Translations under genes and position numbers: made by a program
Shown: positions 1,378-34,393 of the stretch, one piece after another
Numbering within the stretch: the first letter of the stretch is position 1
How the letters are laid out: every line of letters starts with the position of its first letter
Notes under the pieces: generated by a model
Told to the model about the DNA's origin: nothing
What the model saw: only the letters and a program-made list of their open reading frames with translations
Database searches by the model: none
NCBI GenBank assembly: GCA_022820645.1
Contig: JAJEFD010000018.1
Location: 95,252-159,251 of the forward strand
From: Dehalococcoidia bacterium
GTDB taxonomy: Bacteria; Chloroflexota; Dehalococcoidia; Lucifugimonadales; Australimonadaceae
Length of the DNA stretch: 64,000 bases
Direction of reading: 5' to 3'

Positions 1378-1459
1378 GGCCTACGAATCGCTCACGGCGT
1401 ACATGCCCGTGAGCGGCCCGCGGCCCTTCGCGCCCGGATGCTTCCTCGTACCGATGCGG

Positions 1460-4153: not shown

Positions 4154-4267
4154 GCGCAGGGGCTCCAGAACGTGGGGTATCGCGTTTCATGTTAGCAGAC
4201 GCGACGTTCAGCCCGCGCGGGAGACGCGTCGCGCCCCTCTCACACCAGGGGTGCTATCCTGACTCTC

Positions 4268-5488: not shown

Positions 5489-5526
5489 CGACGGGGAGCC
5501 CACCCTGAGGGGCGTATAATCTCCCC

Positions 5527-6321
5527 ATGCTCCTCACGCTGGACATAGGCAACACCAACATCACCATCGGGGCGTTCGACGGCGACGACCTCGCGGCGAG
5601 CTGGCGGCTCTCCACCGACTCCCGCCGACTCACCGACGAGTACGCTCTGCAACTCCGCGAACTCCTCCCCCTGAAGGGCATCGCGCTGGCTGACGTCACC
5701 GACGCCGCACTCTGCAGCGTCGTGCCTCCGCTCACCGGTGTGTTCGAGGATGTCGCGCGCACCCTCTTCTCCTGCGACCCTATCGTCGTGGGCGCCGGAA
5801 CACGCACCGGTATCCGCATCCTGTACCAGAGCCCGCATGACGTGGGCGCGGACCGCATCGTGGACGCTGCAGCCGCTCTCCACTACTACGGCGGGCCCGC
5901 CATCGTCGTCGACCTCGGCACTGCAACGGTCTTCGACGCCGTGACGGCAGACGGAGACTACCTCGGCGGGGCGATCTCCATCGGCGTCGGGCTGGCGGGG
6001 GACGCGCTCGCTGCGAACACGTCGATGCTGCGCCGCGTCGACCTCACCGCGCCGGAGCACGCCATCGGCAAGAACACCACCGCCTCTATCAACTCCGGCC
6101 TCGTCTTCGGTTTCACCGGGCTCGTCGAGGCGATGGTGCGCCGCTTCCGCGACGAGATGGATGCACCGGATGCGACAGTGGTCGGCACCGGCGGTCTCGT
6201 CCCGATCATCGCGGAGCAGACCCCGGTATTCGACGTGGTCGACCCGGAACTGACCCTGCGCGGCCTGCGCCACATCTTCAACCTGAACCGTGAGCCCGCC
6301 CAGACCGGAGGCGCGCGATGA
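5527..6321 (+). CDS. coaX: type III pantothenate kinase
   Basis: 264 aa. N-terminal LLTLDIGNTNITIG phosphate-binding motif and the overall pattern fit the CoaX family. Its stop overlaps the next start (ATGA). Confidence 0.9.
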   Translation: MLLTLDIGNTNITIGAFDGDDLAASWRLSTDSRRLTDEYALQLRELLPLKGIALADVTDAALCSVVPPLTGVFEDVARTLFSCDPIVVGAGTRTGIRILYQSPHDVGADRIVDAAAALHYYGGPAIVVDLGTATVFDAVTADGDYLGGAISIGVGLAGDALAANTSMLRRVDLTAPEHAIGKNTTASINSGLVFGFTGLVEAMVRRFRDEMDAPDATVVGTGGLVPIIAEQTPVFDVVDPELTLRGLRHIFNLNREPAQTGGAR

Positions 6322-7544
6322 GCGGCCCGTTCCATGGCAAGCGCGTACTCCTGGGCGTGAGCGGCAGCATCGCCGCCTACAAGGCCGCCGACCTCGCCAG
6401 CAAACTCACGCAGGGCGGCGCGAAGGTCGACGTGCTCATGACGTACTCCGCGACCCGGTTCGTAACGCCGCTCACCTTTCGCAGCATCACCCATCGCCCG
6501 GTGCTGACCGACCTGTTCGACCCGGATTCGCCGGAGGCGATAGAGCACGTTGCACTGGCACAAGCCGGGCACATCCTCGTCGTCGCCCCTGCGACGGCCC
6601 ACATGCTCGCGAAGCTCGCGCTCGGCCTGGCCGACGACCCCATCAGCGTGACCGCGCTGGCGACCGGCGCGCCACTGCTCATCGCCCCCGCGATGGACGC
6701 GAACATGTGGGAGCACCCCGCCGTCCGGCAGAACGTGAATACGCTCGTGGAGCGTGGCGCGGTCATCGTGGGGCCTGGCGAGGGGCGGCTCGCCTCCGGC
6801 CTCGTGGGCTGGGGACGGCTCGCCGAGACGCCCGAACTGCTCGGGCGCATCGCGCAGACGCTCGGCGCGAACGGCGACCTGCGCGGGCGGAGCATCGTCG
6901 TCAGCGCGGGGGGCACCCAGGAGCCGCTCGACCCCGTACGTGTGCTCACCAACCGCTCCTCGGGGAAGATGGGCTACGCCATCGCGGAGGCCGCGCGGGA
7001 CCGCGGCGCAGACGTAACGCTCGTAACTGCGCCCGCTGTGCTCGACCCTCCCGTCGGCGTGCGCGTCCAACGGGCCGAGACCGCGGAACAGATGCGCACC
7101 GCCGTCCAGGAGGCCGCCTGCTCCGCTGACGCCCTCGTGATGGCTGCTGCCGTCGCCGACTACCGCCCCACTGAGACCAGCAACGAAAAGATGAAGAAGG
7201 AAACGATGGCCGACCTCGTGCTCGCGCTGGAGCGCACCGAGGACATCATCGCCGCCGTGCCGGACGACATCGTGAAGGTTGCTTTCGCGGCTGAGAGCAG
7301 CGGGTTGCTCGAGAACGCCCGCGCCAAGCTACACTCCAAGGGAGCCGACCTCGTCGCAGCGAACGACATCACTCTCCCTGACGCAGGGTTCGGCTCGGAC
7401 CAGAACAAGGTCTGGCTCGTGGACGAGAGCGGGGACACTGAGCTGCCCCTCATGGCAAAATATGACGTAGCGATGGCAATCCTGGACCGTGTTGCAGCGC
7501 TGCTGGACGCAAATCGTCCCATAGAGAACTCGGAGGAGTGTTAA
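6318..7544 (+). CDS. coaBC: bifunctional phosphopantothenoylcysteine decarboxylase / phosphopantothenate--cysteine ligase
   Basis: 408 aa. N-terminal flavoprotein motif (LLGVSGSIAAYKAADL) plus a C-terminal ligase domain. Coupled to coaX. Confidence 0.9.
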   Translation: MSGPFHGKRVLLGVSGSIAAYKAADLASKLTQGGAKVDVLMTYSATRFVTPLTFRSITHRPVLTDLFDPDSPEAIEHVALAQAGHILVVAPATAHMLAKLALGLADDPISVTALATGAPLLIAPAMDANMWEHPAVRQNVNTLVERGAVIVGPGEGRLASGLVGWGRLAETPELLGRIAQTLGANGDLRGRSIVVSAGGTQEPLDPVRVLTNRSSGKMGYAIAEAARDRGADVTLVTAPAVLDPPVGVRVQRAETAEQMRTAVQEAACSADALVMAAAVADYRPTETSNEKMKKETMADLVLALERTEDIIAAVPDDIVKVAFAAESSGLLENARAKLHSKGADLVAANDITLPDAGFGSDQNKVWLVDESGDTELPLMAKYDVAMAILDRVAALLDANRPIENSEEC

Positions 7545-22749: not shown

Positions 22750-23244
22750 CTACGCCGTCAGCCCGCTGGCACGAGCCGCCCGGAACGCCTGCGCGCCCAG
22801 CACCCGGATCTGCTCCTGCGCGGGCTCCGGCGCAGCGCCGGGACGGCTCAACGGCGCGTCCGAGGCCAGTTCTTCCTCCGCTACCCATAGCCAGCCTTCC
22901 GGCAGGTCGGTCACGGGAGCCGCGGGGCGGCAGACGTAGAGGAAGTCGATGTGCTGATGGAATCCATCCACCGGGTCGTCGACATCGGCGATCAGGATGG
23001 TCATGGGAGGCGGCACCTGAAGCGGATAGGCGAGGCTGTCCTCAAGGTCCGCGGTCGGAACCACCTCAGCCACGATCCCCGTCTCCTCCTCCACCTCGCG
23101 CAGGACCGCCTGCACCGGGTCCTCGTTCTCCTCGACGTGGCCGCCCGGAGGGAGCCACATGTCCAGCTTGGGGTGCCAGTGCAGCAGCGTCGCGCCGTCC
23201 TGGACGACGAACGCCGTGGCGGTGAAGTGTCTGATCAGCGACAC
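22750..23244 (-). CDS. NUDIX hydrolase
   Basis: The last 164 aa of ORF 22750..23532. GTG start lies 5 nt after the upstream stop. Nudix box GGHVEENEDPVQAVLREVEEETG. Confidence 0.8.
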   Translation of the reverse strand: MSLIRHFTATAFVVQDGATLLHWHPKLDMWLPPGGHVEENEDPVQAVLREVEEETGIVAEVVPTADLEDSLAYPLQVPPPMTILIADVDDPVDGFHQHIDFLYVCRPAAPVTDLPEGWLWVAEEELASDAPLSRPGAAPEPAQEQIRVLGAQAFRAARASGLTA

Positions 23245-23249
23245 GCGGC

Positions 23250-24017
23250 CTACGGCGCGACCCACGACGCGTCGTGGACGCTCGCTATCGCCTTCTCCAC
23301 GATGTCGTAGATGTAGCGCGCCGCGGTCGGCGGCCCCTCCGTGCGGTCGATCGTGTCTGCGCGGTAGCCCGTCAGCGAGTAGCTCACGTAGATACGCCCG
23401 TCCGATTCCGGCCCCGTCTGCCCGCCGATGACCGGGATGCGCATCGCCTTCGACACGTCGGCGTAGATGTCGAGCGTCACGTTCGTGAGGTCGATCATCA
23501 CCGCGCCCGCGTCCTGCACCGCGTTCGCCCACTTCATGATGTGCTCGTGCGCCTCCGGGCCGCCGTGACGCGGCTCGAACACCTGGAAGCCGATCTGCGG
23601 GTAGACCGGAAGCCCTGCTCCGATGACCGCCAGCACGTCGTCGAACAGCTCCTCCTCCTGGGTGCGGATGTCGACCTTCGTCATGTCCGCGCCCGTCTCT
23701 TCCTTGATGCGGCGCGTCGCCTCCTCCACCGCCTTCGGTCCCGCGTTGCAGACGACCGTCGGCATGTCCACGTTGATGACGGCCCGCTCCGCGACGCGGC
23801 TCACCGCCTTGCCGAACAGCAGCATCGCCTCGAGCGAGAACTCGTCGTCGCTCTCCATGCCGAGGAACGTTCTGCTGACGCTGTCGCCCACCGAGAGCAG
23901 GTCAACGCCCGCGCGCTCCAGGATGCGCGTCATCTGGACGTCGTAGCAGACGCCCGCCGCGATCTTCTTCCCGTCGTTCTTCATCTGCTGCAGGTCAGCG
24001 ATGGTCATCCGCGCCAT
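23250..24017 (-). CDS. PanB-like (3-methyl-2-oxobutanoate hydroxymethyltransferase family) protein
   Basis: ATG at 24017 follows AAGGAGGG. 255 aa. TIADLQQMKNDGKKIA...VDLLSVGDS matches the PanB N-terminal pattern, but the sequence is divergent and not next to panC or panD. Confidence 0.7.
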   Translation of the reverse strand: MARMTIADLQQMKNDGKKIAAGVCYDVQMTRILERAGVDLLSVGDSVSRTFLGMESDDEFSLEAMLLFGKAVSRVAERAVINVDMPTVVCNAGPKAVEEATRRIKEETGADMTKVDIRTQEEELFDDVLAVIGAGLPVYPQIGFQVFEPRHGGPEAHEHIMKWANAVQDAGAVMIDLTNVTLDIYADVSKAMRIPVIGGQTGPESDGRIYVSYSLTGYRADTIDRTEGPPTAARYIYDIVEKAIASVHDASWVAP

Positions 24018-24052
24018 GTCGTCCCTCCTTGTGCTTACGTTCAACCGGTGCG

Positions 24053-25342
24053 TCAGGCCGGAGCGCACAGGCGCTCGCGCGCTGCCGCGTCGAGCTCCTC
24101 ACCCTCCTGGACGAGCGTCTCCCCGAACCGTACGCGGTACACGGAGCCGTCACGAGCAGCCAGCGGAGCGTCCGCCCCGTCCGCGAGGGCGCGCGCCTGC
24201 CGGAGCAGCCTGCGCCGCATCGCTATGATCGCGGCGTCGCTGGTGCCGAGATGCTCCTCGAACCGCTCGACGATGGAGCCCATGCTCTCCTGCACCGCCA
24301 TGTCCTGCGCCTGCGTGCCGGGGATGCCGGAGAACGTCCCGTTCACCTGCAACTCCCGGTCGATCATGTAATCGTTCTCCATGTTGCGTACGGGCAGGAA
24401 CGAGCCGGGCAGCGCGGGGCCTGCGAAGTCCTCGGCCGCCTCGATGTCCTCGCCGCTCAGGGGGCGCTCGTCGTTCCACGTCACCACGATGGTCCAGCAG
24501 CTGTGGTCGTCTATCGGCGTCCAGGCGATGCCCTGGCTGTTGGCGCCCGGCTTCTTCGAGCCCTGTTTGAACAGGTTATAGAACGGCATCATCCAGTGGG
24601 TGAAGCGCCAGTAATGCGTGCCCTCGCCGATGTCGCGGCGCGCCCCGACGCGCAGCCCGTAGTCGGTGTCCTCAGGCAGGAACACGGGAGAGCGGTCGAG
24701 CGCATGGTAGCGGGCGCGCAGGTCGGTTGCGGCCTGGGCGCGCTCCAGCCACGCGGGTGCGCGGCGGAACCCGTCCACCGTCGCGTGCAGGAAGTTGGAG
24801 TGCGCCGAGTCGATGCCGCCCTCGAGTCCCTGCACCCAGTTCGTGCGCTCCAGCCGCTTCGTGACGTAGACGTGCGACAGCGGGATGTGCAGCCACGAGA
24901 AGTCCGGCATCGCGGGCGTCTGCTCCGCCGGGCCGAGGTACGCCCAGACGACGCCTCCGGCCTCGACCGTGGGGTAGGCGGTCTGGCGCACCTTGTCCCG
25001 GTAGTTGCTCGTCGCAGGCTCGGAGGGCATGTCCACGCACTGACCATCCACGTCGAACTTCCAGCCGTGGTAGATGCAGCGCAGGCCGTCCTCTTCGTTC
25101 CGCCCGAAGAAGAGGCTCGCGCGGCGGTGCGGGCAGCGCTCCGCGAGCAGCCCCACGCGCCCCGACGTGTCGCGGAACGCGACGAGCGCCTCGTTCATCA
25201 GACGCGTGCGGACCGGCGGACAGTCGGGCTTCGGCAGTTCGCCGGAGAGGAGGAACGGCACCCAGAAGCGGCGCAGCAGGTCGCCCATCGCCGTCCCGCG
25301 CGATGTCGCGGTGAGCAGAGCGTTGTCCTCTGCGCTGAGCAT
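24053..25342 (-). CDS. Rieske [2Fe-2S] non-heme-iron oxygenase (paralogue 2)
   Basis: The last 429 aa of ORF 24053..25912, starting at MLSAEDN after AGGAGG. Rieske motif CPHRRASLFFG...LRCIYHGW and iron motif IDSAHSNFLH. Confidence 0.88.
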   Translation of the reverse strand: MLSAEDNALLTATSRGTAMGDLLRRFWVPFLLSGELPKPDCPPVRTRLMNEALVAFRDTSGRVGLLAERCPHRRASLFFGRNEEDGLRCIYHGWKFDVDGQCVDMPSEPATSNYRDKVRQTAYPTVEAGGVVWAYLGPAEQTPAMPDFSWLHIPLSHVYVTKRLERTNWVQGLEGGIDSAHSNFLHATVDGFRRAPAWLERAQAATDLRARYHALDRSPVFLPEDTDYGLRVGARRDIGEGTHYWRFTHWMMPFYNLFKQGSKKPGANSQGIAWTPIDDHSCWTIVVTWNDERPLSGEDIEAAEDFAGPALPGSFLPVRNMENDYMIDRELQVNGTFSGIPGTQAQDMAVQESMGSIVERFEEHLGTSDAAIIAMRRRLLRQARALADGADAPLAARDGSVYRVRFGETLVQEGEELDAAARERLCAPA

Positions 25343-25410: not shown

Positions 25411-26511
25411 CTACACCGCCACCAGCATCCCCTCCCGCACGGCGAGTCCCAAGCCCGGCGCGCCGGGGTCCGGTATCGTCAGCACGCCGCCGTCGCCGAA
25501 CATCAGGCTCTCCGCGGTCAGGTCCTCGCGTAGCAGATGCGTCCCGAACGCTCCCTCGGACGCCGCGAGCACGGGGCGCGCCGCCTGCATCACCGTCAGC
25601 CCCGCCCGCGTGAGGATGCTCGTCTCGCCCACCTGCGCCCCGACGATCACGCCCATCCCCAGGCCCGCGGCGCGCTCGACCACTTCCAGCGACCTCCCGA
25701 TGCCGCCCATCTTGGAGACGCGCACGTTCACGATCCACCGCTCCGGATCGCTCAGGGCGTCCAGCTGCGACGTGCGCAGCAGGCTCTCGTCCAGGATGAT
25801 GCGGACGCTGCACTCCTCGCTCACGCGCTCGAAACCCGCGAGGTCGCCCGCCGTCAGCGGCTCTTCGACCGCGTACACGCCGCCGCCCAACGCGTTGAGG
25901 TGCGCGATGCAATCGTCCGCGTCGGACCAGAAGTTGTTGGCATCGAGCCGCACCCGTAGTTGCTTCTTCCCCAACGCGCGCAGCTTCCGCCGGTCGCGGT
26001 TGAGGTCGCCGGAGACCTTCACCTTGAAGTCGGCGAAGCCCTTCCTGCGGTAGCGGAAGAGCTGCAGGCGGTACACGAGATACGGCGAGTCGCCGAGCAC
26101 GGCAGAGTACGTGAAGCCGCCGTCGAGGCGCGGCACGCCGACGACATCCTCGACCGGCGCGCCCCCGGTCTTGCCGAGCAGGTCCAGCACCGCGAGCTCG
26201 ATGGCGCAGAACGCGGCAGGATGCTCGTCTATCTCACTCCGGTGCGCATCGGCCCACGCGCGCAGGCTCGCGCCGTCGGTCACCTCGTCCGCGATCGCCT
26301 GAGCGTAACACCGGATAAACGCCGCGCCGTCCTCCACCGTCTCGCCCGTCACGTAGTCGCGGGGACAGCCCTCGCCGTAGCCGGTCAGCCCGTCGTCGGA
26401 GCGCGCCGCGACGATGAGATTCTCGGCGCGGGAGCGGCTCGCCGACGCGTGGCGGAATACGGCCTTGAACGGCACCGGGAAGCTGTAGACGTCGAGACGC
26501 TCGATGCGCAA
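25411..26511 (-). CDS. enolase-superfamily enzyme, MLE subgroup (N-acylamino-acid racemase / dipeptide epimerase-like)
   Basis: 366 aa from a TTG 4 nt after the GH3 stop. Catalytic pattern: FKVKVSG (KxK), RLDAN, AVEEP, ILDES, VSKMGG. Confidence 0.75.
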   Translation of the reverse strand: MRIERLDVYSFPVPFKAVFRHASASRSRAENLIVAARSDDGLTGYGEGCPRDYVTGETVEDGAAFIRCYAQAIADEVTDGASLRAWADAHRSEIDEHPAAFCAIELAVLDLLGKTGGAPVEDVVGVPRLDGGFTYSAVLGDSPYLVYRLQLFRYRRKGFADFKVKVSGDLNRDRRKLRALGKKQLRVRLDANNFWSDADDCIAHLNALGGGVYAVEEPLTAGDLAGFERVSEECSVRIILDESLLRTSQLDALSDPERWIVNVRVSKMGGIGRSLEVVERAAGLGMGVIVGAQVGETSILTRAGLTVMQAARPVLAASEGAFGTHLLREDLTAESLMFGDGGVLTIPDPGAPGLGLAVREGMLVAV

Positions 26512-26515
26512 CGGC

Positions 26516-28153
26516 TCACTCCGCCACGGCGATGGCGTCGAAGTCGAACGCGGAGTCGCGCGCGTACTGCAGGTGCAGGTACTTGAACTGCGCGTCCCGC
26601 TGCCCCGACGCCACGCAACTCTCGCGGTACTGTCCGCCCGCGCCGTCCGGAAGCAGCCGCACGCGCAGCGGCGCGAGCCGTCCGCTCTTGCGTTTGGCCT
26701 CGTACTCGATGTTCGACACACTCAGGAGGCGGTCGATCTCGCCAGCTGCCCCGCCGCCGGCGAACGCGGACGCGCCGGTTTCCACGTAGAGCGTGTAGCC
26801 GGACGCCGCCTCGTCCGCGAGCATGATGAAGAACTCCGGCGGCGCGCCGGTGGGAGCGAATGCCGACGTCACCGCGTCGAGCACTTGCGCCTCCGTCACC
26901 TTCTCGCCCGTGATGTTCGTGACCCCCTTGCCCTTCTGCACGAAGCCCAGCGTTGGCGTGTTCCCGACCCAGCCGTTCACGCGCACGATGTCGTTGATGT
27001 CGTAGCGGTAGAGGCCGTCGCCGGTCGTGACGAACACGTAGTACTCGCGTCCGTCCTCCAGCTCGTCGAGACAGAGGAATTCGCCCGTGTCCGCCTCCCA
27101 CGCGTCGCGCTCCGCGAACTCGAAGAAGGTGTTGAGGAACGTCGGCAAACAGGCGTTCCGCAGCACGTCGACGTTCAATGTCCCGCGGAACTCGCTCGAC
27201 GAGTATCCCCACTCGATGATCTGCACGCCGTCCGGCAACAGCGGCGACAGGTTGCCGAGCGCGATGCCGCAGCTGCCGCCCGTCCACGTGACGATGCCCC
27301 GCAGGCCCGGCCAGATGTCGGCATACGTCAGCCGTCCCGCCGCGCTCAGGCGCCGCTCCAACTCCCCCGCGCGCTCCGGCCGGGGCGTCAGCGGCAGGCC
27401 GGACGCTTCGCCCGGCAGCCGCCCCGAGGCGATGGCGCCGAGCACGGCGTCCGCGTTGTCGTGCACCACCGACAGCAGCCGCAGGAACGTGGACGGGTTC
27501 GCCGTCGCCGCGCCGGTCACACCGGGTTCGGCGAGGCCGTAGACTGCCATTGCGAGGTAGCGGGCGTCGTAGTCCTCGATGTCCGACACCGCCGCGGGCA
27601 GCACGTACCGCGACTGCACGAAGCGCGACTGGTGACGGTACAGCAGGCCCGACGCTGAACCGAACGGCGTGCCTCCGTCCATGTGCCCCTCGACCGCCGC
27701 GCCGCTGATGGCGAACACCTTGCCCTCCAGCACGCCCGCATCCCGCGCCCAGACGTACGCGGAGAGGCGCTGGTCGCGCTTCATCTGCGCAAGGCCGGAC
27801 GCCGTCACGGGGATGTTCTTCGGCGCGCCGACCGTCCCGCTCGTGCGGTGGTAGTAGACGGGCCGCTCCTGCGTCAGGCATCGCTCGCCGGTCAGCTCCT
27901 GCCGCTCGATCGCCTCGCGCAGGTCCTCGTACGTGAGCACCGGCACCGCCTGCCGGTAGTCGCTCACGCTCGCGACGCTCCCCAGCCCGTGCTCCCTGCC
28001 GAACTCCGTATCCGCGTTCGCAGACAGGATGCGGCGCAGCACCGCCTCCTGGGTCGCGCGGGGCGACTCCGCCGCGCGCATCATCCGCTTGTAGCGCCGC
28101 GCCTGCGTTGCGCTCAGCGCCGTCTTGAACAGCTTGTAGGTCAGTCCGCTCAT
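26516..28153 (-). CDS. GH3-family acyl-acid amido synthetase-like protein
   Basis: 545 aa from an ATG that overlaps the upstream stop (ATGA). Three GH3 signature regions: HRTSGTVGAPKNIP, WGYSSSEF, GLYRYDINDIVRV. Confidence 0.85.
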   Translation of the reverse strand: MSGLTYKLFKTALSATQARRYKRMMRAAESPRATQEAVLRRILSANADTEFGREHGLGSVASVSDYRQAVPVLTYEDLREAIERQELTGERCLTQERPVYYHRTSGTVGAPKNIPVTASGLAQMKRDQRLSAYVWARDAGVLEGKVFAISGAAVEGHMDGGTPFGSASGLLYRHQSRFVQSRYVLPAAVSDIEDYDARYLAMAVYGLAEPGVTGAATANPSTFLRLLSVVHDNADAVLGAIASGRLPGEASGLPLTPRPERAGELERRLSAAGRLTYADIWPGLRGIVTWTGGSCGIALGNLSPLLPDGVQIIEWGYSSSEFRGTLNVDVLRNACLPTFLNTFFEFAERDAWEADTGEFLCLDELEDGREYYVFVTTGDGLYRYDINDIVRVNGWVGNTPTLGFVQKGKGVTNITGEKVTEAQVLDAVTSAFAPTGAPPEFFIMLADEAASGYTLYVETGASAFAGGGAAGEIDRLLSVSNIEYEAKRKSGRLAPLRVRLLPDGAGGQYRESCVASGQRDAQFKYLHLQYARDSAFDFDAIAVAE

Positions 28154-29043
28154 CGCTCGAGCCCCGCGATGAACGGCGTCCGCATCTGCGCGACGAACCC
28201 CAGCGGGTACTCGCGGTTGTGCAGCCCCAGGATGCCTACCTCGCGGTCCTTCGGGAGGAACCGCGTGCCGAAGAGCACGTCCCAGACGATGAGGTTGTTG
28301 CCGAAGTTGTTGTCCGATTCCACCGTAACCTCCGAGTGGTGCCAGCGGTGCAGTTCCGGCCCGCTGACCAGATAGTTGAGCGGCCCCAGGCGCACGCGGC
28401 AGTTGGAGTGCTGGAAGAAGCCGTTGAGCGCGTAGAAGACGAAGTACGCCGCGAGCACCTCCGGCGGCACGCCGACCAGCGCGAACGGCAGCGTGTCCAC
28501 TGTGTACTGGACCGCTTTCTCGATGGGGTGGAAGCGCCCCACGTTCAGCCAGTAGAGCCGGTGCGGCGAGTGGTGCACCGCGTGCAGGCACCACATCGGC
28601 CTGAACCGGTGGAACGCCCTGTGCAGCCAGTACCGCGGGAAGTCCGCCGCCGCGATCATCAGCACGACCTGAGCCGCGATGGGGAGGCCGTGCGGCCACA
28701 GCCCCTCGACGGCCAGCCCGCGGGCGTCGAACAGGTCGGCCAGCGCGACTACGACCGTCACCGAGAACAGCAGCGGCAGCACCGCCTGCACCGCGGCGAG
28801 GAACATCGCATCGGCGCGGACGTCGCTCCCGGTCGGATGCCACTCTCTGCGGTACGGCAGCCGCGCCTCGTGCAGCGTCACGAGCGCCGCGCCGGTGATG
28901 ACCGCGACCCACGACGCAGCCGTGACCTGCCAGCCGAGTCCCACGAGCGCCGCGTAGACCGCGAACCCGATCGCCAGCACACCGGGGTACGAGCCCACGA
29001 CGACGATGCGGGCGAGCGCCGTGTTCGCGTTCGCGTTGGTCAC
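28150..29043 (-). CDS. fatty acid hydroxylase / sterol desaturase superfamily membrane protein
   Basis: 297 aa from a GTG overlapping the upstream stop (GTGA). Several TM helices and three His boxes: HRAFH, HAVHH, HRWHH. Confidence 0.85.
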   Translation of the reverse strand: MTNANANTALARIVVVGSYPGVLAIGFAVYAALVGLGWQVTAASWVAVITGAALVTLHEARLPYRREWHPTGSDVRADAMFLAAVQAVLPLLFSVTVVVALADLFDARGLAVEGLWPHGLPIAAQVVLMIAAADFPRYWLHRAFHRFRPMWCLHAVHHSPHRLYWLNVGRFHPIEKAVQYTVDTLPFALVGVPPEVLAAYFVFYALNGFFQHSNCRVRLGPLNYLVSGPELHRWHHSEVTVESDNNFGNNLIVWDVLFGTRFLPKDREVGILGLHNREYPLGFVAQMRTPFIAGLER

Positions 29044-29510
29044 GCCGCGCCCCCGGCGTCCCTGCCCGCGCTGTAGACGTAGTGCCCGAAGAGCAGCACG
29101 AACGCCGCGAGCACGAGGTGGAAGAGCGCAGGGAGGCTCTCCGCGAACCAACCGACGTCCGAGAGGAACGTGAGCCCCGCTGCGAGCCGGAACGCCATCG
29201 CCGCGAAGTACGCCCCGCCGAGGACGAAGCACGCGCGGTGCTTCCACGTCGCAGGAGTGATCGACCGCGAGCGCACCATCACGAGCGCCCGCGCCAGCAG
29301 CGCGACGATGAGCACCTGCGAGGCGAGCAGCGCGGGGTATGGCAGCCCCGAGCCCTGCCAGGTGTCGAACGATGGGAGAAACGGCACCGGGCCCGCCCAC
29401 TGCACCGCCTGCGCCAGCACGCGCAGTACGAACAGCGCCGCGAGCGCGAGCATCCACGGGAGATAGCGCTGGTGGAGAGGGGCGGTGTCGTTCATCGTTC
29501 TGGACAGCAC
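29040..29510 (-). CDS. hypothetical 4-TM membrane protein
   Basis: 156 aa. GTG start lies 38 nt downstream of tRNA-Arg. Four hydrophobic helices. I recognise no family. Confidence 0.6.
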   Translation of the reverse strand: MLSRTMNDTAPLHQRYLPWMLALAALFVLRVLAQAVQWAGPVPFLPSFDTWQGSGLPYPALLASQVLIVALLARALVMVRSRSITPATWKHRACFVLGGAYFAAMAFRLAAGLTFLSDVGWFAESLPALFHLVLAAFVLLFGHYVYSAGRDAGGAA

Positions 29511-29548: not shown

Positions 29549-29626
29549 TGGCGCGCTAGGCGGGACTCGAACCCACGGCCTCATCCTCCGCAGGGATGCG
29601 CTCTATCCTGACTGAGCTACTAGCGC
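29549..29626 (-). tRNA. tRNA-Arg, anticodon GCG by manual folding
   Basis: Cloverleaf: acceptor GCGCTAG/CTAGCGC, D arm GCTC-AGTCAGGATA-GAGC (A20 present), anticodon stem CATCC/GGATG with loop CTGCGGA, T arm GTGGG-TTCGAGT-CCCGC, and an encoded CCA. Confidence 0.85.
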
Positions 29627-29674
29627 ACTCTCAAGGTGCCACCGGTTGCGGGGCCGGAGGCGTCATATGCTTAG

Positions 29675-29760
29675 TGGTGCCGAGGGCGAGATTTGAACTC
29701 GCACGCCCGTAAGGACACTGCGCCCTGAACACAGCGCGTCTGCCGTTCCGCCACCTCGGC
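29675..29760 (-). tRNA. tRNA-Leu (CAG)
   Basis: Acceptor GCCGAGG/CCTCGGC, anticodon stem CTGTG/CGCAG with loop TTCAGGG, long variable arm, T loop TTCAAAT, encoded CCA. 86 nt. Confidence 0.9.
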
Positions 29761-29772
29761 ACGTCCACACAG

Positions 29773-29849
29773 TGGTGGGCGATACAGGACTTGAACCTGT
29801 GACCTCTTGCGTGTGAAGCAAGCGCTCTAACCAACTGAGCTAACCGCCC
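29773..29849 (-). tRNA. tRNA-Val (CAC)
   Basis: Acceptor GGGCGGT/ATCGCCC, D arm GCTC-AGTTGGTTA-GAGC, anticodon stem CTTGC/GCAAG with loop TTCACAC, encoded CCA. 77 nt. Confidence 0.9.
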
Positions 29850-29931: not shown

Positions 29932-30798
29932 ATGGCGAACCCGAGAGCCGACTTCGTTCCCCTGCCCGACAGGCCGGCGCTGCACCTGCCGCGGGGCGCC
30001 CGCGTCGCCGTCATCCTCGTGATGAACGTCGAGCAGAACGAGTTCGACCACCACGTCGGACGCCCCCTCAGCCCGCAGCCTCCGGGACGCGAGCGCCTGC
30101 CGGACGTGCCCAACTTCTCGTGGTTCGAGTACGGCCTCCGCGCCGGCTTCTGGCGGGTGCTCAACGCCTGCCGCAGCCACCACGTGCCGATGACGATAGC
30201 GCTCAATGGCTCGGTCTGCGACGCCTACCCGCAGGTCGCCCGCGCCGCCTTCGACGCCGGATGGGACGCCGTCGCCCACGGCTACCACCAGCGTCCGATG
30301 CCCGCCGTGGACGATGAGGCAGCCGAGATCAAGCGCGCTCTCGACGCCATCGAGGCGTTCAGCGGCACGCGGCCCCTCGGTTGGCTCGGCCCTGGACTCG
30401 GCGAGACCGACGCCACGCCGGAGCTGCTCGTCGACGCGGGCGTCGAGTTCGTTCTCGACTGGGTCAACGACGATCAGCCGTACGAGTTGAACGTCGCCAG
30501 CGGCAGGCTCTTCTCCGTCCCCTACTCGCTCGAACTGAACGACATCGGCGTCTACATCCGGCTCGGCCACCCGGGGCCGTCGATGCTGGAGCGCGTCCAC
30601 GACCACCTCACGACGCTCCTCAACGACGAGCCGGAGACCGCGCGCGTGATGTCCATCGGCCTGCACCCGTTCATCGTTGGCCAGCCGCACCGCTTCCCCT
30701 ACTTCGTGAAGATGCTGGAGCTCATCATGAACACCCCCGGCGCGATACCGATGACCGCCACCGAGGTCTACCGCTGGTACCGCGAACAGACGGGCTAG
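29932..30798 (+). CDS. polysaccharide deacetylase (NodB-homology) family protein
   Basis: 288 aa. General resemblance to divergent deacetylase/PuuE-like proteins (WFEYGLRAGFWR, HGYHQ). The family call comes from memory of the pattern. Confidence 0.6.
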   Translation: MANPRADFVPLPDRPALHLPRGARVAVILVMNVEQNEFDHHVGRPLSPQPPGRERLPDVPNFSWFEYGLRAGFWRVLNACRSHHVPMTIALNGSVCDAYPQVARAAFDAGWDAVAHGYHQRPMPAVDDEAAEIKRALDAIEAFSGTRPLGWLGPGLGETDATPELLVDAGVEFVLDWVNDDQPYELNVASGRLFSVPYSLELNDIGVYIRLGHPGPSMLERVHDHLTTLLNDEPETARVMSIGLHPFIVGQPHRFPYFVKMLELIMNTPGAIPMTATEVYRWYREQTG

Positions 30799-30804
30799 CC
30801 CGCC

Positions 30805-30867
30805 GTTCCTGCGAAGGCAGGAACCTCGCAGCCCTACTCCGTCATGCCGGCGAAGGCTGGCATCCAG
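30805..30867. repeat. two GC-rich tetraloop hairpin repeats (REP-like)
   Basis: GTTCCTGC-GAAG-GCAGGAAC (30805-30824) and GTCATGCCGGC-GAAG-GCTGGCATCCAG (30841-30867). The second recurs at 33597-33623. Confidence 0.7.
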
Positions 30868-31190
30868 GGTCCCCGACGGGGCACGCGGAGAGCCGTCGTG
30901 TCCTGCGGTGTCCTCCCTGTGCCACTCCTCCCTGTTCCCGCACAGGCGTGGACCGCGCAGCCGCAATCGCTCTAACTGTGCCATTGTGGGCCATTGTGAG
31001 CCATTCCACTCCTGCGACCCTGCCCTCGTGCCGGGGCAGGCCCACCGGCGGCGCAGCGCCGTCACCAACCAACGTACGTGGTCAGGGGGCGGTGGGGAAG
31101 GGGCGCGTGTCACATTGACACCCCTACTTCTCACTAGTAGCGTCCAGCCACCATCTGTTGTACGGCCTTCATAGGGCAAGTGGCAGATGC

Positions 31191-31262
31191 GGGCCCGTGG
31201 TGTAATGGGAGCCACACCACATTGCGAATGTGGAGGTGCGGGTTCGAGTCCCGTCGGGTCCA
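31191..31262 (+). tRNA. tRNA with anticodon GCG (Arg by anticodon); no encoded CCA
   Basis: Acceptor GGGCCCG/CGGGTCC (one G-U pair), anticodon stem CCACA/TGTGG with loop TTGCGAA, T arm GCGGG-TTCGAGT-CCCGT, 4-nt variable loop, discriminator A. The D stem is imperfect. Confidence 0.7.
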
Positions 31263-31314
31263 GTGGTGATGCTTCGAATAGGGTGAGATATGCTCAGCCC
31301 TAATCTAGTAACCC

Positions 31315-31608
31315 CTAGACTGCGGTACCGCCTTGTGCATCAGCTATGTCTTGTGCATCCGATACATTGCTCGTGCCTACACAAGTCTTCTTTCTGTCAC
31401 ACAAGTCGTATGCAGCCTGATACTCCCACTCTGTCTTGCAGAGAATACCTTCATGGAATAAGCACTTCAGCGCCTTTTCCACTTGAGTTCTACTTATATC
31501 TACTGTTACGAACGCATACTTAGGCAGAGGGTGCAGTGAACTACATAGTAACTGAATAATGTGATTTTTCTCTCGTTCTAGTTCCTCGCAGTTCAGTTCC
31601 TCTACCAT
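31315..31608 (-). CDS. hypothetical small protein, possibly winged-helix DNA-binding
   Basis: 97 aa. ATG is preceded by GAAGGAGG. It lies in a visibly AT-richer stretch. The segment DISRTQVEKALKCLFHEGIL looks like a wHTH recognition helix, which is a weak call. Confidence 0.55.
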   Translation of the reverse strand: MVEELNCEELEREKNHIIQLLCSSLHPLPKYAFVTVDISRTQVEKALKCLFHEGILCKTEWEYQAAYDLCDRKKTCVGTSNVSDAQDIADAQGGTAV

Positions 31609-31647
31609 CTCGGCCTCCTTCTAAGTTTAGCGTTCTGCCCTCCCTAA

Positions 31648-31709
31648 CCCCGTCAACCCCCAACCTCGACCCGCCCGACAGTGAAGCGCTCGCCGTCAGG
31701 TGGTGGATG
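31648..31709. repeat. copy A of an imperfect ~60-bp direct repeat (degenerate duplicate of the RCC1-like gene 3' end)
   Basis: Aligns with 32060-32120 at an offset of 412 nt, including the stop codon. It encodes ...PPDGERFTVGRVEVGG* versus ...PPEGERFAVGRVEVGS*. Confidence 0.8.
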
Positions 31710-31729
31710 AACAGACAGATGGTCCATGC

Positions 31730-31987
31730 TTAGGTCTCCTTGATACCTGCGTACAGACAGGTTGAGCATCTGAAAATCTCGACATGCGTGTCTCCAACGG
31801 TTACAAGCGAATGCAATGTTGCCTTCTGGCAGTTCACGCATCTGAGTCCCATGCCGGATCCTGGATGTACCGGATCCCCAACGCGCCATCCTATAAAGCC
31901 GCAACTCGAGCACCTGCTGAACGACCCTGTCTCTTCAACGTGAAGCGTCTGGGTCCAACAGGCCGGACACTTTCTGCCCATCGCCAT
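31730..31987 (-). CDS. tandem zinc-ribbon small protein
   Basis: Track ORF is 31730..32068. AAGGAG is followed by three in-frame ATGs (31993, 31987, 31981), and I chose the middle one. Four CxxC pairs: CPAC, CSSC, CVNC, CSTC. Confidence 0.6.
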   Translation of the reverse strand: MAMGRKCPACWTQTLHVEETGSFSRCSSCGFIGWRVGDPVHPGSGMGLRCVNCQKATLHSLVTVGDTHVEIFRCSTCLYAGIKET

Positions 31988-32059
31988 GGCCATCTCCTTG
32001 GCACGCAAAATTACTCTGTTCCGCCGCGCACGAGCGGCAACCCTACCGACCCCTCCCCA

Positions 32060-32120
32060 CCCCGTCAACTCCCGACCTCGACCCGCCCGACGGCGAAGCG
32101 CTCGCCCTCAGGCGGTGATG
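32060..32120. repeat. copy B of the ~60-bp direct repeat (authentic 3' end of the RCC1-like gene)
   Basis: See copy A. The two copies bracket the zinc-ribbon gene. Confidence 0.8.
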
Positions 32121-33504
32121 CTTGGCTAAAACTATCGTCGCCCCAGCAGACTGCCGTACCGTTAGGTCGGAGTGCACAGGCATGCTCCTGGCCGCTACTG
32201 ATCGATGAGAAATGCTCGGCCTCCGGCGGCGTCGCTTGACCCCTACTGTTCAAACCCGCGCAAACGGCGCTCCCATCTGACCGTAACGCGCAAGTGTATG
32301 CCGCGCCGGTACTAATCGAAATGAACCGCTCGTCATCCAGCGGTGATTGATCTCTCCCCCAACATACAGCGCTACCATCCTGGCGTAACCCACACGTGCG
32401 TCTGACGCCGCTACTGATAGACACGAAACGTTCGGTCTCCGGTGGTGACGCTTGGCCATACTCGTTCCAGCCCCAGCAAACAACGCTCTCATCAGGCCGT
32501 AGGCCGCATGTGTGTCCGCTGCCACTACTCACAGATACGAAGCGATCACCTTCTGGCGGCGATGACTGACCGTCTTGGTTCTTCCCCCAGCAAGCAGCCC
32601 TGCCATCGGACCGCAGGGCACATGTATGCGCCGTACCGCTACTGATTGACACAAACTGCTCTTGCTCCAAGGGCGACGCTTGGCCGTGCTCGTTCCAGCC
32701 CCAGCAAACGACGCTCCCATCAGGCCGCAGGCCGCATGTGTGTCCGCCGCCACTACTCACAGATACGAAACTCTCATCTTCCGGTGGCGATGTGCCTCCA
32801 TTGCGATTGTCTCCCCAGCACACAGGGCTACCATCCAGACGTAGCGCACATGTGTGATGGCCACCACTGCTGAGCGTCGTATGCTGCTCTGGCGCACGGA
32901 AGTTTTCCGGTACGGGGTATGGCGTGGCCGTGGGGGTCGGTGTATCCGTGGGCACCGGCGTAGGAGGCGGCTTAAGCGTCCACCAGCCGCAGGCATCGGA
33001 CGCGCGGAACCCCGCGTCGGTCGGCAGGATGGCGACGGTCGGGGGAGCGGTCGTCGAGTCCTGGAACAGCACGACCTCGCCTCCGGCGTCGAGCCTGCTG
33101 AGCCGCGCCCACTCGCACGTTCCCGATACCTCCGGGGCCTCGTAGACGCCGGGGATGATCTGCTCACCGACAAGCCACGAGCCCGGCGGGAACGCGGTCC
33201 ACGGGAAGGGGGCAGGAGTTGGGGTCGGTGTGGCAGTGGGCGTTGGCGTCGGAGTGGGAGTAGGTGTCGGAGAAGGCGTAGGAGTTGGAGTGGGCGTTGG
33301 TGTAAGGGTTGGCGTAGGAGTCGCAGTGGGAGTTGGGGTTACTGTAGGAGTTGGCGTCGGCGTGGGGATGGGCGTGGCGGTTGGGGGGAGCGTGGGCGTG
33401 GGGCGGGCGGCAGACTCCACGATGCCGACCGTCGGCGGGGCGGAGTCGCACGCCGCGAACGCGAGCGCAAGGAGCATCAGGGCGAGGAGCGCAGGCGTTC
33501 GCAA
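32065..33504 (-). CDS. RCC1-repeat (seven-bladed propeller-type) lipoprotein with Pro/Thr linker
   Basis: 479 aa. TTG start follows GGAGA. Lipobox LALAFAAC and a roughly 65-aa PT-rich linker. Seven repeats of about 37 aa of the type F-[VI]S[VI]SSG-x-HTCGLR-x-DGS-VVCWG-x-N-x-GQ-SPP. Confidence 0.85.
   Translation of the reverse strand: MRTPALLALMLLALAFAACDSAPPTVGIVESAARPTPTLPPTATPIPTPTPTPTVTPTPTATPTPTLTPTPTPTPTPSPTPTPTPTPTPTATPTPTPAPFPWTAFPPGSWLVGEQIIPGVYEAPEVSGTCEWARLSRLDAGGEVVLFQDSTTAPPTVAILPTDAGFRASDACGWWTLKPPPTPVPTDTPTPTATPYPVPENFRAPEQHTTLSSGGHHTCALRLDGSPVCWGDNRNGGTSPPEDESFVSVSSGGGHTCGLRPDGSVVCWGWNEHGQASPLEQEQFVSISSGTAHTCALRSDGRAACWGKNQDGQSSPPEGDRFVSVSSGSGHTCGLRPDESVVCWGWNEYGQASPPETERFVSISSGVRRTCGLRQDGSAVCWGRDQSPLDDERFISISTGAAYTCALRSDGSAVCAGLNSRGQATPPEAEHFSSISSGQEHACALRPNGTAVCWGDDSFSQASPPEGERFAVGRVEVGS
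32095..32883. repeat. tandem ~111-114-bp coding repeats (RCC1 blades) with a ~230-bp higher-order periodicity
   Basis: Stretches around 32466-32565 and 32696-32795 are near-identical at the DNA level. There are seven units overall. Confidence 0.8.
33211..33402. repeat. low-complexity hexanucleotide-type repeat encoding a (Pro-Thr)n linker
   Basis: Encodes TPTPTPTPTVTPTPTATPTPTLTPTPTPTPTPSPTPTPTPTPTPTATPTPTP. Confidence 0.85.
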
Positions 33505-33561
33505 GGGGCAGCGTCTCCAGTCAGTGGGTGGCGGCGAGTCTAGCAGAGCGGGTGGGGGCGT

Positions 33562-33623
33562 GGTTCGACAGGCTCACCATGAGCGGGATGAGGCCTGTCA
33601 TGCCAGCGGAGGCTGGCATCCAG
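33562..33623. repeat. REP-like hairpin pair
   Basis: GACAGGC...GCCTGTC stem, then GTCATGCCAGC-GGAG-GCTGGCATCCAG. The second unit matches 30841-30867. Confidence 0.65.
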
Positions 33624-33805
33624 CATGCCTGATAGGCACACGGAGGGGCGCACGGCCCCGCGGCAGGCGCTGACAGCTTCAGCAGCAGGTGAAGCGCGGT
33701 GGTACCAAATACGGCGCCTGAATTGAGACCGCGCCGATACCTACAACAGTCCCCTCTTCTTGTACATTGGCCTGCAGCGGGATAGCCAGGGAGGTGGCTC
33801 TCAAA

Positions 33806-34393
33806 ATGCCTGTGAGATGGGAGTTCGCTATCTTCGTAGTGCCCGCGGTTATCGTAACCGTCATAGTCATCGGCATCTTCGTTCTGCTGACTGCTGGTTC
33901 AGGTGAAGTGGTCGAACCCGAAGTGGGATTGACTGCAGAGGCTGCACTGGAATCCCCGTCCGGCGACCCCGTGGGGACCGTTACATTCCGGCAAGCAAGC
34001 TCCGGGGTCCTCATCATGGCCGACGTGAAGGGACTGGCCCCGGGCGGTCATGCGTTCATCATCCACGAGACCGGCGCGTGTTCGCCTGACTTCGGCGCCG
34101 CCGGCGACCACTTCAACCCCACTGGCGCCGAACATGGTCTCGTCCATCCGGCCTGGAAGCGGGGCGAATCCGGGGGACACAGCGGCGACCTGCCCAATAT
34201 CTACGCCGCCTCCGACGGTTCCGCACGGGCAGACTTCTTTACCGCTGGCATCACACTGGACACGGCCTTGAGTCATTCCATATTCGACGACGACGGCTCC
34301 GCCATCATCGTGCACGAACACCCGGACGCCTACGGAGAGACCGAGTCGGACACCGGCAGGCGCGTGGCCTGCGGGGTGATCGAGCCGCGATAG
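33806..34393 (+). CDS. sodC: Cu/Zn superoxide dismutase, membrane-anchored or secreted
   Basis: ATG at 33806 within ORF 33767..34393. N-terminal TM or signal helix. SodC motifs HAFIIHETGAC, GDHFNP, GGHSGDLPN, IIVHEHPD, RVACGVI. Confidence 0.88.
   Translation: MPVRWEFAIFVVPAVIVTVIVIGIFVLLTAGSGEVVEPEVGLTAEAALESPSGDPVGTVTFRQASSGVLIMADVKGLAPGGHAFIIHETGACSPDFGAAGDHFNPTGAEHGLVHPAWKRGESGGHSGDLPNIYAASDGSARADFFTAGITLDTALSHSIFDDDGSAIIVHEHPDAYGETESDTGRRVACGVIEPR

Follow-up and report, generated by a model that had tools for sequence, protein, structure and literature searches.

Organisation of the module

The stretch of Dehalococcoidia DNA analysed here, referred to as the window, comprises 64,000 nucleotides (nt) with a G+C content of approximately 67%, and it carries a module of four genes spanning about 4.1 kb. 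A GH3-family acyl-acid amido synthetase is encoded here between a membrane di-iron hydroxylase and an enzyme of the enolase superfamily, and the three genes are preceded by one for a small protein with four transmembrane helices (the 4-TM protein). All four genes are located on the minus strand, coordinates are positions in the whole window, and the genes are named A to D in reading order:

29040 to 29510, minus strand: gene A, 4-TM protein, 156 amino acids from GTG at 29510 or 151 amino acids from ATG at 29495
29040 to 29043, minus strand: GTGA overlap of the hydroxylase start with the 4-TM stop, read in the sequence
28150 to 29043, minus strand: gene B, membrane di-iron hydroxylase of the FA_hydroxylase family, OlsE-like, 297 amino acids
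28150 to 28153, minus strand: ATGA overlap of the GH3 start with the hydroxylase stop, read in the sequence
26516 to 28153, minus strand: gene C, GH3-family acyl-acid amido synthetase, 545 amino acids
26509 to 26515, minus strand: spacer GCCG and TTG start of the enolase-superfamily gene, read in the sequence
25411 to 26511, minus strand: gene D, enolase-superfamily enzyme of the MLE subgroup, racemase/epimerase-like, 366 amino acids

A preliminary description of the locus had regarded the genes as translationally coupled, and direct reading of the minus strand bears out all three junctions: the GTG start of the hydroxylase gene (29043-29041) lies over the TGA stop of the 4-TM gene (29042-29040), the ATG start of the GH3 gene (28153-28151) lies over the TGA stop of the hydroxylase gene (28152-28150), and the GH3 stop (TGA, 26518-26516) is followed by the four nucleotides GCCG (26515-26512) and then by the TTG start codon of the enolase gene (26511-26509). 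The motifs it had listed were all found in the translations, that is TSGTVGAPK, WGYSSSE and GLYRYDINDIV in the GH3 enzyme, the His boxes HRAFH, HAVHH and HRWHH in the hydroxylase, and FKVKVSG, RLDAN, VEEP, LDES and SKMGG in the enolase member, and its family calls (GH3, FA_hydroxylase and MR_MLE) were right according to Pfam and NCBIfam scans. The start of the 4-TM gene is uncertain by 15 nt; relatives are annotated at 151 amino acids, matching the ATG at 29495 and not the GTG at 29510.

Conservation of the hydroxylase, GH3 and enolase genes

Related loci were collected by a genome scan with one genome per species and an alignment of GH3 homologues as the query, which returned 80 loci, and seven further loci were added by look-ups of individual GH3 homologues and of one 4-TM homologue adjacent to the trio of genes B, C and D. 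The loci are labelled with L-numbers, and L001-L083 were compared by tblastn of the window proteins. In every locus with a sufficiently long contig (86 loci, from L001-L083, L084-L086 and L088) the hydroxylase, GH3 and enolase genes follow each other in the same order and on the same strand, with identities of GH3 to the window protein ranging over L001-L083 from 97% down to 48%. The record titles put the loci in six groups, namely Dehalococcoidia, Gammaproteobacteria (including Candidatus Foliamicus, Rariloculus and Azotimanducaceae), Alphaproteobacteria, Acidimicrobiales, Candidatus Binatia and Thermodesulfobacteriota. The nearest loci are found in metagenome-assembled genomes (MAGs) of Dehalococcoidia/SAR202 bacteria, with 94-100% protein identity over the entire neighbourhood, and the closest GH3 homologues carry Chloroflexi protein names. 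Complete MAG chromosomes such as OZ220673.1 and OY764542.1 are among the carriers. Judging from MAG naming schemes in the record titles, and not from metadata, many of the carriers are presumably derived from sponges.

The flanks of the trio are wholly different between clades; in L002, for instance, it is set between ndk-rlmN-rodZ-hisS and the suf operon. When the open reading frames (ORFs) of the 83 loci were clustered all against all, only four families turned out to be common to multiple clades: GH3 (in 82 loci), the hydroxylase (80), the enolase member (79) and the 4-TM protein (50). The same clustering produced no universally linked regulator, transporter, hydrolase, acyltransferase or scaffold-building enzyme, which fits a module fed by common cell metabolites. 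The junctions are also retained: most loci offer a start codon in a 4- or 8-nt overlap with the hydroxylase stop, 77 of 81 loci have a gap of 2-20 nt between the GH3 and enolase genes, and the TTG start recurs in the Dehalococcoidia relatives. Pairwise identity matrices of the three proteins correlate with r = 0.72-0.89, and even between phyla the minimum identities of the trio proteins are 45-50%. A search of a plasmid collection gave no copy of the trio, only distant homologues of GH3 and of "sterol desaturase".

Because order, strand, junctions and co-variation are conserved amid unrelated flanks, the trio amounts to one functional unit, which has been inherited and horizontally transferred as a block. 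The conservation of the neighbourhood, on which the preliminary description had made its case depend, is very strong and reaches beyond a single phylum. That the four genes are mere neighbours with unrelated functions is effectively refuted by the same arrangement, kept with its overlaps and co-variation in more than 80 loci with unrelated flanks, and we give this explanation next to no credence.

The GH3 enzyme

All three GH3 domains (N, M and C; PF03321, PF23571 and PF23572) were recognized in gene C with E-values of 2.6e-49, 5.9e-18 and 5.4e-12, corresponding to 168.5, 65.2 and 46.9 bits against a Pfam gathering cut-off of 23.6. Among 13 sequences with identities as low as 59%, no variation was seen in the nucleotide motifs T104-S105-G106-T107-x-G109-x-x-K112, Y317-x-x-S320-E321 and Y382-R383-Y384...D388. 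An AlphaFold2 model built on the 13-sequence alignment was poor (predicted local distance difference test, pLDDT, 62.9; predicted template modelling score, pTM, 0.41).

The sole NCBIfam match of gene C is the model for the lyso-ornithine-lipid synthetase OlsH (NF052613, 6.8e-25), covering residues 16-233 only and scoring 87.6 bits, so that the equivalog threshold of 620 bits is not reached. In the PDB, the best match is the plant enzyme AtGH3.15 (2.1e-25, 92 bits), and the plant proteins GH3.8 and GH3.12 are also among the best solved relatives. By these profile scores gene C is a putative distinct GH3 clade and not an OlsH orthologue.

OlsH, described in 2025 from the olsH-olsG-olsI operon of Singulisphaera acidiphila, is a bacterial GH3 enzyme which uses ATP and Mg2+ to join a free fatty acid to ornithine, forming N-acyl ornithine; thousands of bacterial homologues are uncharacterised and possibly use other amino acids (PMC12493201). 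The product of OlsH was obtained in cell extracts and not in vivo. The two systems have in common that a bacterial GH3 ligase is central in an operon together with lipid-modifying partners, and the essential P-loop serine S115 of OlsH (PMC12493201) has its counterpart in the T104-S105-G106-T107 motif of gene C. The partners are different: OlsH is found with a methyltransferase and an alpha/beta-hydrolase O-acyltransferase, the present module with an OlsE-like hydroxylase, an enolase-superfamily member and a 4-TM protein. The O-acyltransferase, OlsI, is in the operon of all planctomycete members (PMC12493201), whereas no O-acyltransferase of this type is conserved beside the trio in the 83 loci and the Pfam-annotated loci. 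A literature search for other characterised bacterial GH3 enzymes returned the OlsH work only. The statement in the preliminary description that no characterised bacterial GH3 operon of this composition was known therefore holds for the composition and has to be qualified by the characterised olsH-olsG-olsI operon, whose composition differs.

Outside the module, GH3 homologues were seen in other surroundings. One with 30% identity to gene C is present on the Streptomyces sp. SGAir0924 plasmid NZ_CP027299 (locus L089, 17247-30788) in a cluster with a type I polyketide synthase (PKS), a cytochrome P450, an aminotransferase, a dehydrogenase, an F420 oxidoreductase, a FAH-family protein and thrS. 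This cluster resembles the borrelidin cluster, and it is evidence that polyketide pathways, too, make use of bacterial GH3 enzymes. Another homologue was found in a radical-SAM cluster on a Citrobacter plasmid; identities of the plasmid GH3 homologues are 26-30%. The presence of a GH3 enzyme by itself therefore does not point to a fatty acid as the substrate.

Gene C shares the three-domain architecture and the nucleotide motifs with the plant GH3 enzymes (AtGH3.15, JAR1 and GH3.12), at a similarity of 47-92 bits, but the plant proteins are soluble hormone-conjugating enzymes without operon partners. Plant GH3 enzymes conjugate auxin, jasmonate and benzoates, and gene C might correspondingly join an amino acid to a small acid of aromatic, alicyclic or dicarboxylic type, perhaps one produced by an oxygenase, giving a secondary metabolite, a signal or a detoxification conjugate that is tailored by the hydroxylase and the enolase member. 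Gene C is as near to AtGH3.15 (92 bits) as to OlsH (88 bits), homologues at 26-30% identity do occur in the PKS/P450/aminotransferase/thrS and radical-SAM clusters, and a LigXa-type Rieske oxygenase gene follows the module in SAR202. Such a product is nevertheless rather unlikely, as the Rieske gene is linked in one class only, scaffold-building genes are not conserved with the trio, and the hydroxylase is an integral-membrane enzyme of a lipid-acting family accompanied by a second membrane protein.

The membrane hydroxylase and the 4-TM protein

We prefer a lipid-like role for the module because the ligase is translationally coupled to an integral-membrane enzyme of a lipid-modifying family. 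Gene B matches the Pfam family FA_hydroxylase (PF04116) at 1.2e-29, and its sole NCBIfam match is OlsE (NF052566, 1.3e-48) with 165.8 bits, where residues 45-292 align in a colinear fashion with positions 35-284 of the 293 in the model. The 33 family members scanned all match OlsE and nothing else, with 166-200 bits and a best E-value of 3.3e-58; neither gene B nor any of these homologues reaches the equivalog threshold of 475 bits. In the 33 sequences H141, H145, H154, H157, H158, H232, H235 and H236 are invariant and make up a complete HX3H, HX2HH, HX2HH motif, and H172 and H212 are invariant as well. Rhizobial proteins of the "sterol desaturase family" are 33-35% identical to gene B, and no PDB relative was found by sequence or family profile.

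OlsE hydroxylates C4 of the ornithine head group in the ornithine lipids of Rhizobium tropici and Agrobacterium (PMC12971839). Gene B resembles it in the near-full-length colinear alignment and the complete eight-histidine di-iron motif, and differs from it in being translationally coupled to GH3, often behind a dedicated 4-TM gene. The preliminary description had suggested that the hydroxylase could act on the acyl moiety; this now appears less probable, as the closest characterised hydroxylase acts on the amino-acid head group instead.

The product of gene A has no match in Pfam or NCBIfam. Its family comprises 423 cluster representatives in the protein database, all of about 140-165 amino acids, and among the best 120 of these a Pfam domain is absent throughout and "hypothetical protein" is the sole source name. 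An AlphaFold2 model (pLDDT 90.9) consists of four long helices (residues 12-39, 58-80, 88-113 and 125-155), in which the polar residues R30, Q34, Q37, Y58, Q65, R108 and H131 are invariant. Neither a Foldseek search with this model (best E-value 1.3, TM-score below 0.45) nor the family sequence profile gave a match in the PDB, and gene A is thus predicted to be a new, unnamed family without a Pfam or PDB relative.

In 50 of the 83 loci (about 60%) the 4-TM gene occurs within the 7 kb that precede the GH3 gene, mostly directly beside the hydroxylase gene. In one complete Dehalococcoidia genome (represented by L021 and L087) it lies 1.9 Mb from the trio, and it is therefore retained even when unlinked. 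We infer that the 4-TM protein is an accessory membrane partner of the hydroxylase. A role as a di-haem cytochrome b electron donor was considered and is unsupported, with H131 as the one invariant histidine.

At the remote site in that genome (L087, same genome as L021, contig of 2,734,736 bp), the 4-TM gene is directly downstream of NuoF-like, NuoG-like and molybdopterin genes, which look like an NAD-dependent formate dehydrogenase.

The enolase-superfamily member

Both the capping and the barrel domain were found in gene D (MR_MLE_N 4.6e-05 and MR_MLE_C 5e-27 in Pfam). In 32 sequences K163, K165, D190, E217, D241 and K267 do not vary, and in alignments they fall on the catalytic residues (KxK, D, E, D, K) of 3jva, 2p88 and 1jpm. 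When the family profile was compared with the PDB, the closest entries were the dipeptide epimerase 3jva (3.6e-41), 2p88 (5.9e-40) and the Ala-Glu epimerase YkfB (1jpm, 1.6e-36), while the muconate cycloisomerases came at 8e-27 or worse, at least 14 orders of magnitude behind the epimerases. In a single-sequence search the entries for NSAR/N-acylamino-acid racemase were far weaker (2zc8 3e-12, 1sja 3e-08).

The NCBIfam models have no power to separate racemase, muconate cycloisomerase and o-succinylbenzoate synthase (OSBS) for gene D, all scoring 65-84 bits and all far below their cut-offs: 83.7 bits against 335 for muconate/chloromuconate cycloisomerase (TIGR02534), 79.6 against 200.65 and 68.9 against 130.55 for the OSBS/NSAR models TIGR01928 and TIGR01927, and 80 and 65 bits for DgcA and cis-3-hydroxyproline dehydratase. 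The epimerase models gave 39-51 bits against cut-offs of 343-500. The placement given in the preliminary description, with the racemases and epimerases of the MLE subgroup, accordingly finds its support in the PDB profiles, where dipeptide epimerases and 2p88 and not muconate cycloisomerases are nearest, whereas the NCBIfam models do not discriminate.

In dipeptide epimerases a DxD motif (D-F-D) after strand beta8 binds the alpha-ammonium group of the substrate. Gene D does not have this motif; opposite the D-F-D of YkfB it carries A-F-G within the invariant E319-G-A-F-G-T324, in a region of weak similarity where the alignment is uncertain. The only match aligned end to end with gene D, 2p88, likewise lacks DxD and has V-E-L-T-G-P at the beta8 position. 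We take 2p88 to be the Bacillus cereus N-succinyl-Arg/Lys racemase BC0371. BC0371 clusters with the Ala-Glu epimerases although their typical residues are missing from it, and its activity was found to be that of an N-succinyl-Arg racemase (PMC2948282). Since gene D is devoid of DxD in the same way as 2p88, and in parallel with BC0371, the alpha-amino group of its substrate is probably acylated and not free.

Gene D is only about 25-30% identical to BC0371 and the epimerases and has invariant signatures of its own, with H21, A24 and R26 in the 20s loop, C49-P50-R51-x-Y53 in the 50s loop and EGAFGT at beta8. It also differs in its genomic partner, which is a GH3 ligase and not a GNAT succinyltransferase together with a hydrolase. 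By these signatures, gene D is a predicted new family of the MLE subgroup.

A second, different gene of the MR_MLE family is located just upstream of the module in L088 (4625-5806, minus strand), on the strand opposite to it, and enolase-superfamily paralogues seem to be abundant in genomes carrying the module.

An importer in a gammaproteobacterial clade

Nine gammaproteobacterial loci (L060, L062, L063, L068, L070 and L073-L076, at about 1000-6000) contain a complete PotABCD-type ABC importer between the 4-TM and hydroxylase genes, giving the operon order 4-TM, PotA-like ATPase, binding protein, two permeases, hydroxylase, GH3 and enolase. The binding protein, encoded in L075 for example at 2846-3961, is nearest to the PDB entry 8jv1 (1e-68), for which a literature search gave nothing, and to gamma-aminobutyric acid (GABA)-, mannopine- and agropine-binding proteins. 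From this arrangement it would seem that the module can be supplied with an imported amino compound. In sister loci of Candidatus Foliamicus (L065-L069, at about 5350-6080) only fragments of the ATPase gene are left beside an intact module, and the importer has decayed in this lineage.

An importer raises the question of salvage. An imported D- (or L-) amino compound could be N-acylated by GH3, inverted by the racemase and freed by an unlinked deacylase, following the same logic as the N-succinyl-amino-acid racemase and DgcN-DgcA D-glutamate pathways, and gene D does resemble DgcA (80 bits) and 2p88. The importer inside the operon of the nine loci speaks for this scheme, as do the numerous enolase-superfamily paralogues for which SAR202 bacteria are known, and for which a part in the processing of chiral dissolved organic matter has been proposed. 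It would, however, leave the invariant membrane hydroxylase and the 4-TM protein without a role, no deacylase or amidohydrolase is conserved with the module, and the importer belongs to one clade only and is decayed in a sister lineage where the module is intact. The conversion of ATP to AMP by GH3 for each inversion would also, to our knowledge, be unprecedented. We consider stereo-inversion for salvage quite improbable.

A proposed pathway to a hydroxylated N-acyl amino acid

Collectively, we propose that the four genes form a horizontally mobile biosynthetic module that would make a hydroxylated, possibly D-configured, N-acyl amino acid, a proposal drawn from the sequence comparisons above and held with confidence and doubt in about equal measure. 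A single-chain lipoamino acid would be the most likely product.

In a first step, deduced from GH3 chemistry and the OlsH precedent, gene C would adenylate a free, probably fatty, acid with ATP and Mg2+ and then acylate an amino acid at its alpha-amino group. In a second step the enolase member, with its intact MLE-subgroup catalytic set and BC0371-like active-site pattern, may hold the carboxylate of the conjugate on Mg2+ while one lysine removes the alpha-proton and a second lysine reprotonates the opposite face to give the D-epimer; if a beta-leaving group is present, this could be eliminated instead. In a third step the di-iron hydroxylase, probably together with the 4-TM protein, would use O2 to hydroxylate the conjugate in the membrane, presumably on the amino-acid head group as OlsE does. 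The last two steps could take place in either order.

GH3 enzymes are irreversible, ATP-consuming ligases, and since no amidohydrolase is linked to the module in the 83 loci either, synthesis is preferred over breakdown; the option that the module dismantles a conjugate, left open in the preliminary description, is thus unlikely. A biosynthetic, lipid-like role is also favoured by the fact that the module does without a transporter, a regulator or a further downstream enzyme of its own. Its central idea, that a GH3 product is passed to a racemase, agrees with the families, the conservation, the epimerase-like placement of gene D and the OlsH and OlsE precedents, and it is the dismantling and the acyl chain as a target that have become less likely.

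Several observations weigh against the biosynthetic proposal. The equivalog cut-offs for OlsH (88 bits against 620) and OlsE (166 bits against 475) are missed by a wide margin, and for gene D the broad muconate-cycloisomerase model comes marginally first (84 bits, compared with 80 for DgcA and 80 for OSBS). Other bacterial GH3 genes stand in non-lipid contexts such as the type I PKS and radical-SAM clusters, and the importer inside the operon, with its GABA/mannopine-type binding protein, also suits salvage or catabolism. No Pho box was found upstream, the 80 loci examined scoring no better than shuffled sequences in what is a weak test with a proteobacterial consensus. Finally, no OlsI- or OlsA-like O-acyltransferase is linked in the 83 loci, which makes a single-chain (lyso-type) amphiphile or signal likelier than a two-chain membrane lipid.

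If the pathway is as proposed, the module would combine the known GH3 aminolipid theme of OlsH with an OlsE-type modification in a different operon composition. A literature search combining GH3, sterol desaturase and racemase gave no enolase-superfamily enzyme and no 4-TM family in such a context. We would tentatively go further, to a reading which we doubt clearly more than we believe: gene D may be the first member of the enolase superfamily to work in the biosynthesis of lipoamino acids or aminolipids, with the 4-TM protein dedicated to a bacterial membrane di-iron hydroxylase as its partner, in a system spread horizontally through marine bacteria of six phyla, many of which seem to be associated with sponges. 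The enolase member might in that case turn the head group into its mirror form, yielding an N-acyl-D-amino-acid lipid, or it might form a hydroxylation-then-dehydration pair with the OlsE-like enzyme and yield an alpha,beta-dehydroamino acid (enamide) head group, and the product could be a phosphorus-free membrane amphiphile or a signal to a host.

Bacterial GH3 enzymes number thousands, with OlsH from 2025 as the sole proven function, and the module is a second GH3 system, clearly delimited and validated by its evolution, with different partner chemistry. It is a compact, clonable target that could provide a function for a new enolase-superfamily family and lead to an unknown class of modified N-acyl amino acids, compounds with biosurfactant and bioactive uses. 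It could also identify a partner of a bacterial FA_hydroxylase-type enzyme, a group in which little is clear about accessory subunits or the supply of electrons. The module is carried by SAR202 and other uncultured marine bacteria whose lipids and signalling molecules are essentially uncharted, and altogether three uncharacterised protein families of abundant uncultured marine bacteria could be given a function.

Genomic surroundings of the module

The closest neighbours of the module in the window are the following:

29549 to 29849, minus strand: cluster of tRNA-Val(CAC), tRNA-Leu(CAG) and tRNA-Arg(GCG), by ARAGORN and Rfam
24053 to 25342, minus strand: Rieske oxygenase with a LigXa-type C-terminal domain, by Pfam, with an AGGAGG Shine-Dalgarno sequence
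23250 to 24068, minus strand: PanB-like (ketopantoate-hydroxymethyltransferase-like) gene, by Pfam, overlapping the Rieske gene

The tRNA cluster is on the strand of the 4-TM gene, separated from its upstream end by 38-54 nt, and marks the upstream boundary of the module. The same cluster precedes the 4-TM gene in L004, L005, L008, L012, L023 and L026 (at about 5250-5610), and its synteny extends to SAR202 relatives with a GH3 identity as low as 66%; L017 lacks the cluster. A consensus scan was uninformative, giving one promoter-like site upstream of tRNA-Val (29895-29866) and one terminator-like match inside the GH3 gene, and Rfam gave tRNAs only and no riboswitch or leader. Transcription of the module may continue from the tRNA operon, or a tRNA locus may have been the site of its insertion.

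On the downstream side, the PanB-like gene is followed by a NUDIX gene, the whole segment covering 22750-25342 on the minus strand. The pair of Rieske and PanB-like genes is found near the module only in Dehalococcoidia, where it stays close throughout the class: it is adjacent in close relatives, 2 kb off in L026, L027 and L055, and has the opposite orientation in L023 and L024. The other groups lack the pair. The Rieske, PanB-like and NUDIX genes were considered as part of the module core and rejected, being linked in Dehalococcoidia only and rearranged even there, and the pair is treated as a lineage-specific neighbour.

Far from the module, ARAGORN calls an 88-nt tRNA-Thr(CGT) at 6768-6855 (plus strand) which is below the Rfam tRNA gathering threshold and may be a false positive or an atypical tRNA. 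The segment of the window at about 30000-34000 has a G+C content of 0.62-0.64, compared with 0.67-0.70 elsewhere, and carries a second, different tRNA-Arg(GCG) at 31191-31262 (plus strand), small ORFs without family match, and one ORF with an IS1595-type zinc ribbon at a sub-threshold Pfam E-value of 5.8e-4. An RCC1-repeat protein with a long Thr/Pro-rich linker (32065-33504, minus strand) and a Cu/Zn superoxide dismutase (33767-34393, plus strand) are also encoded in this region, and the segment may be a remnant of acquired DNA.

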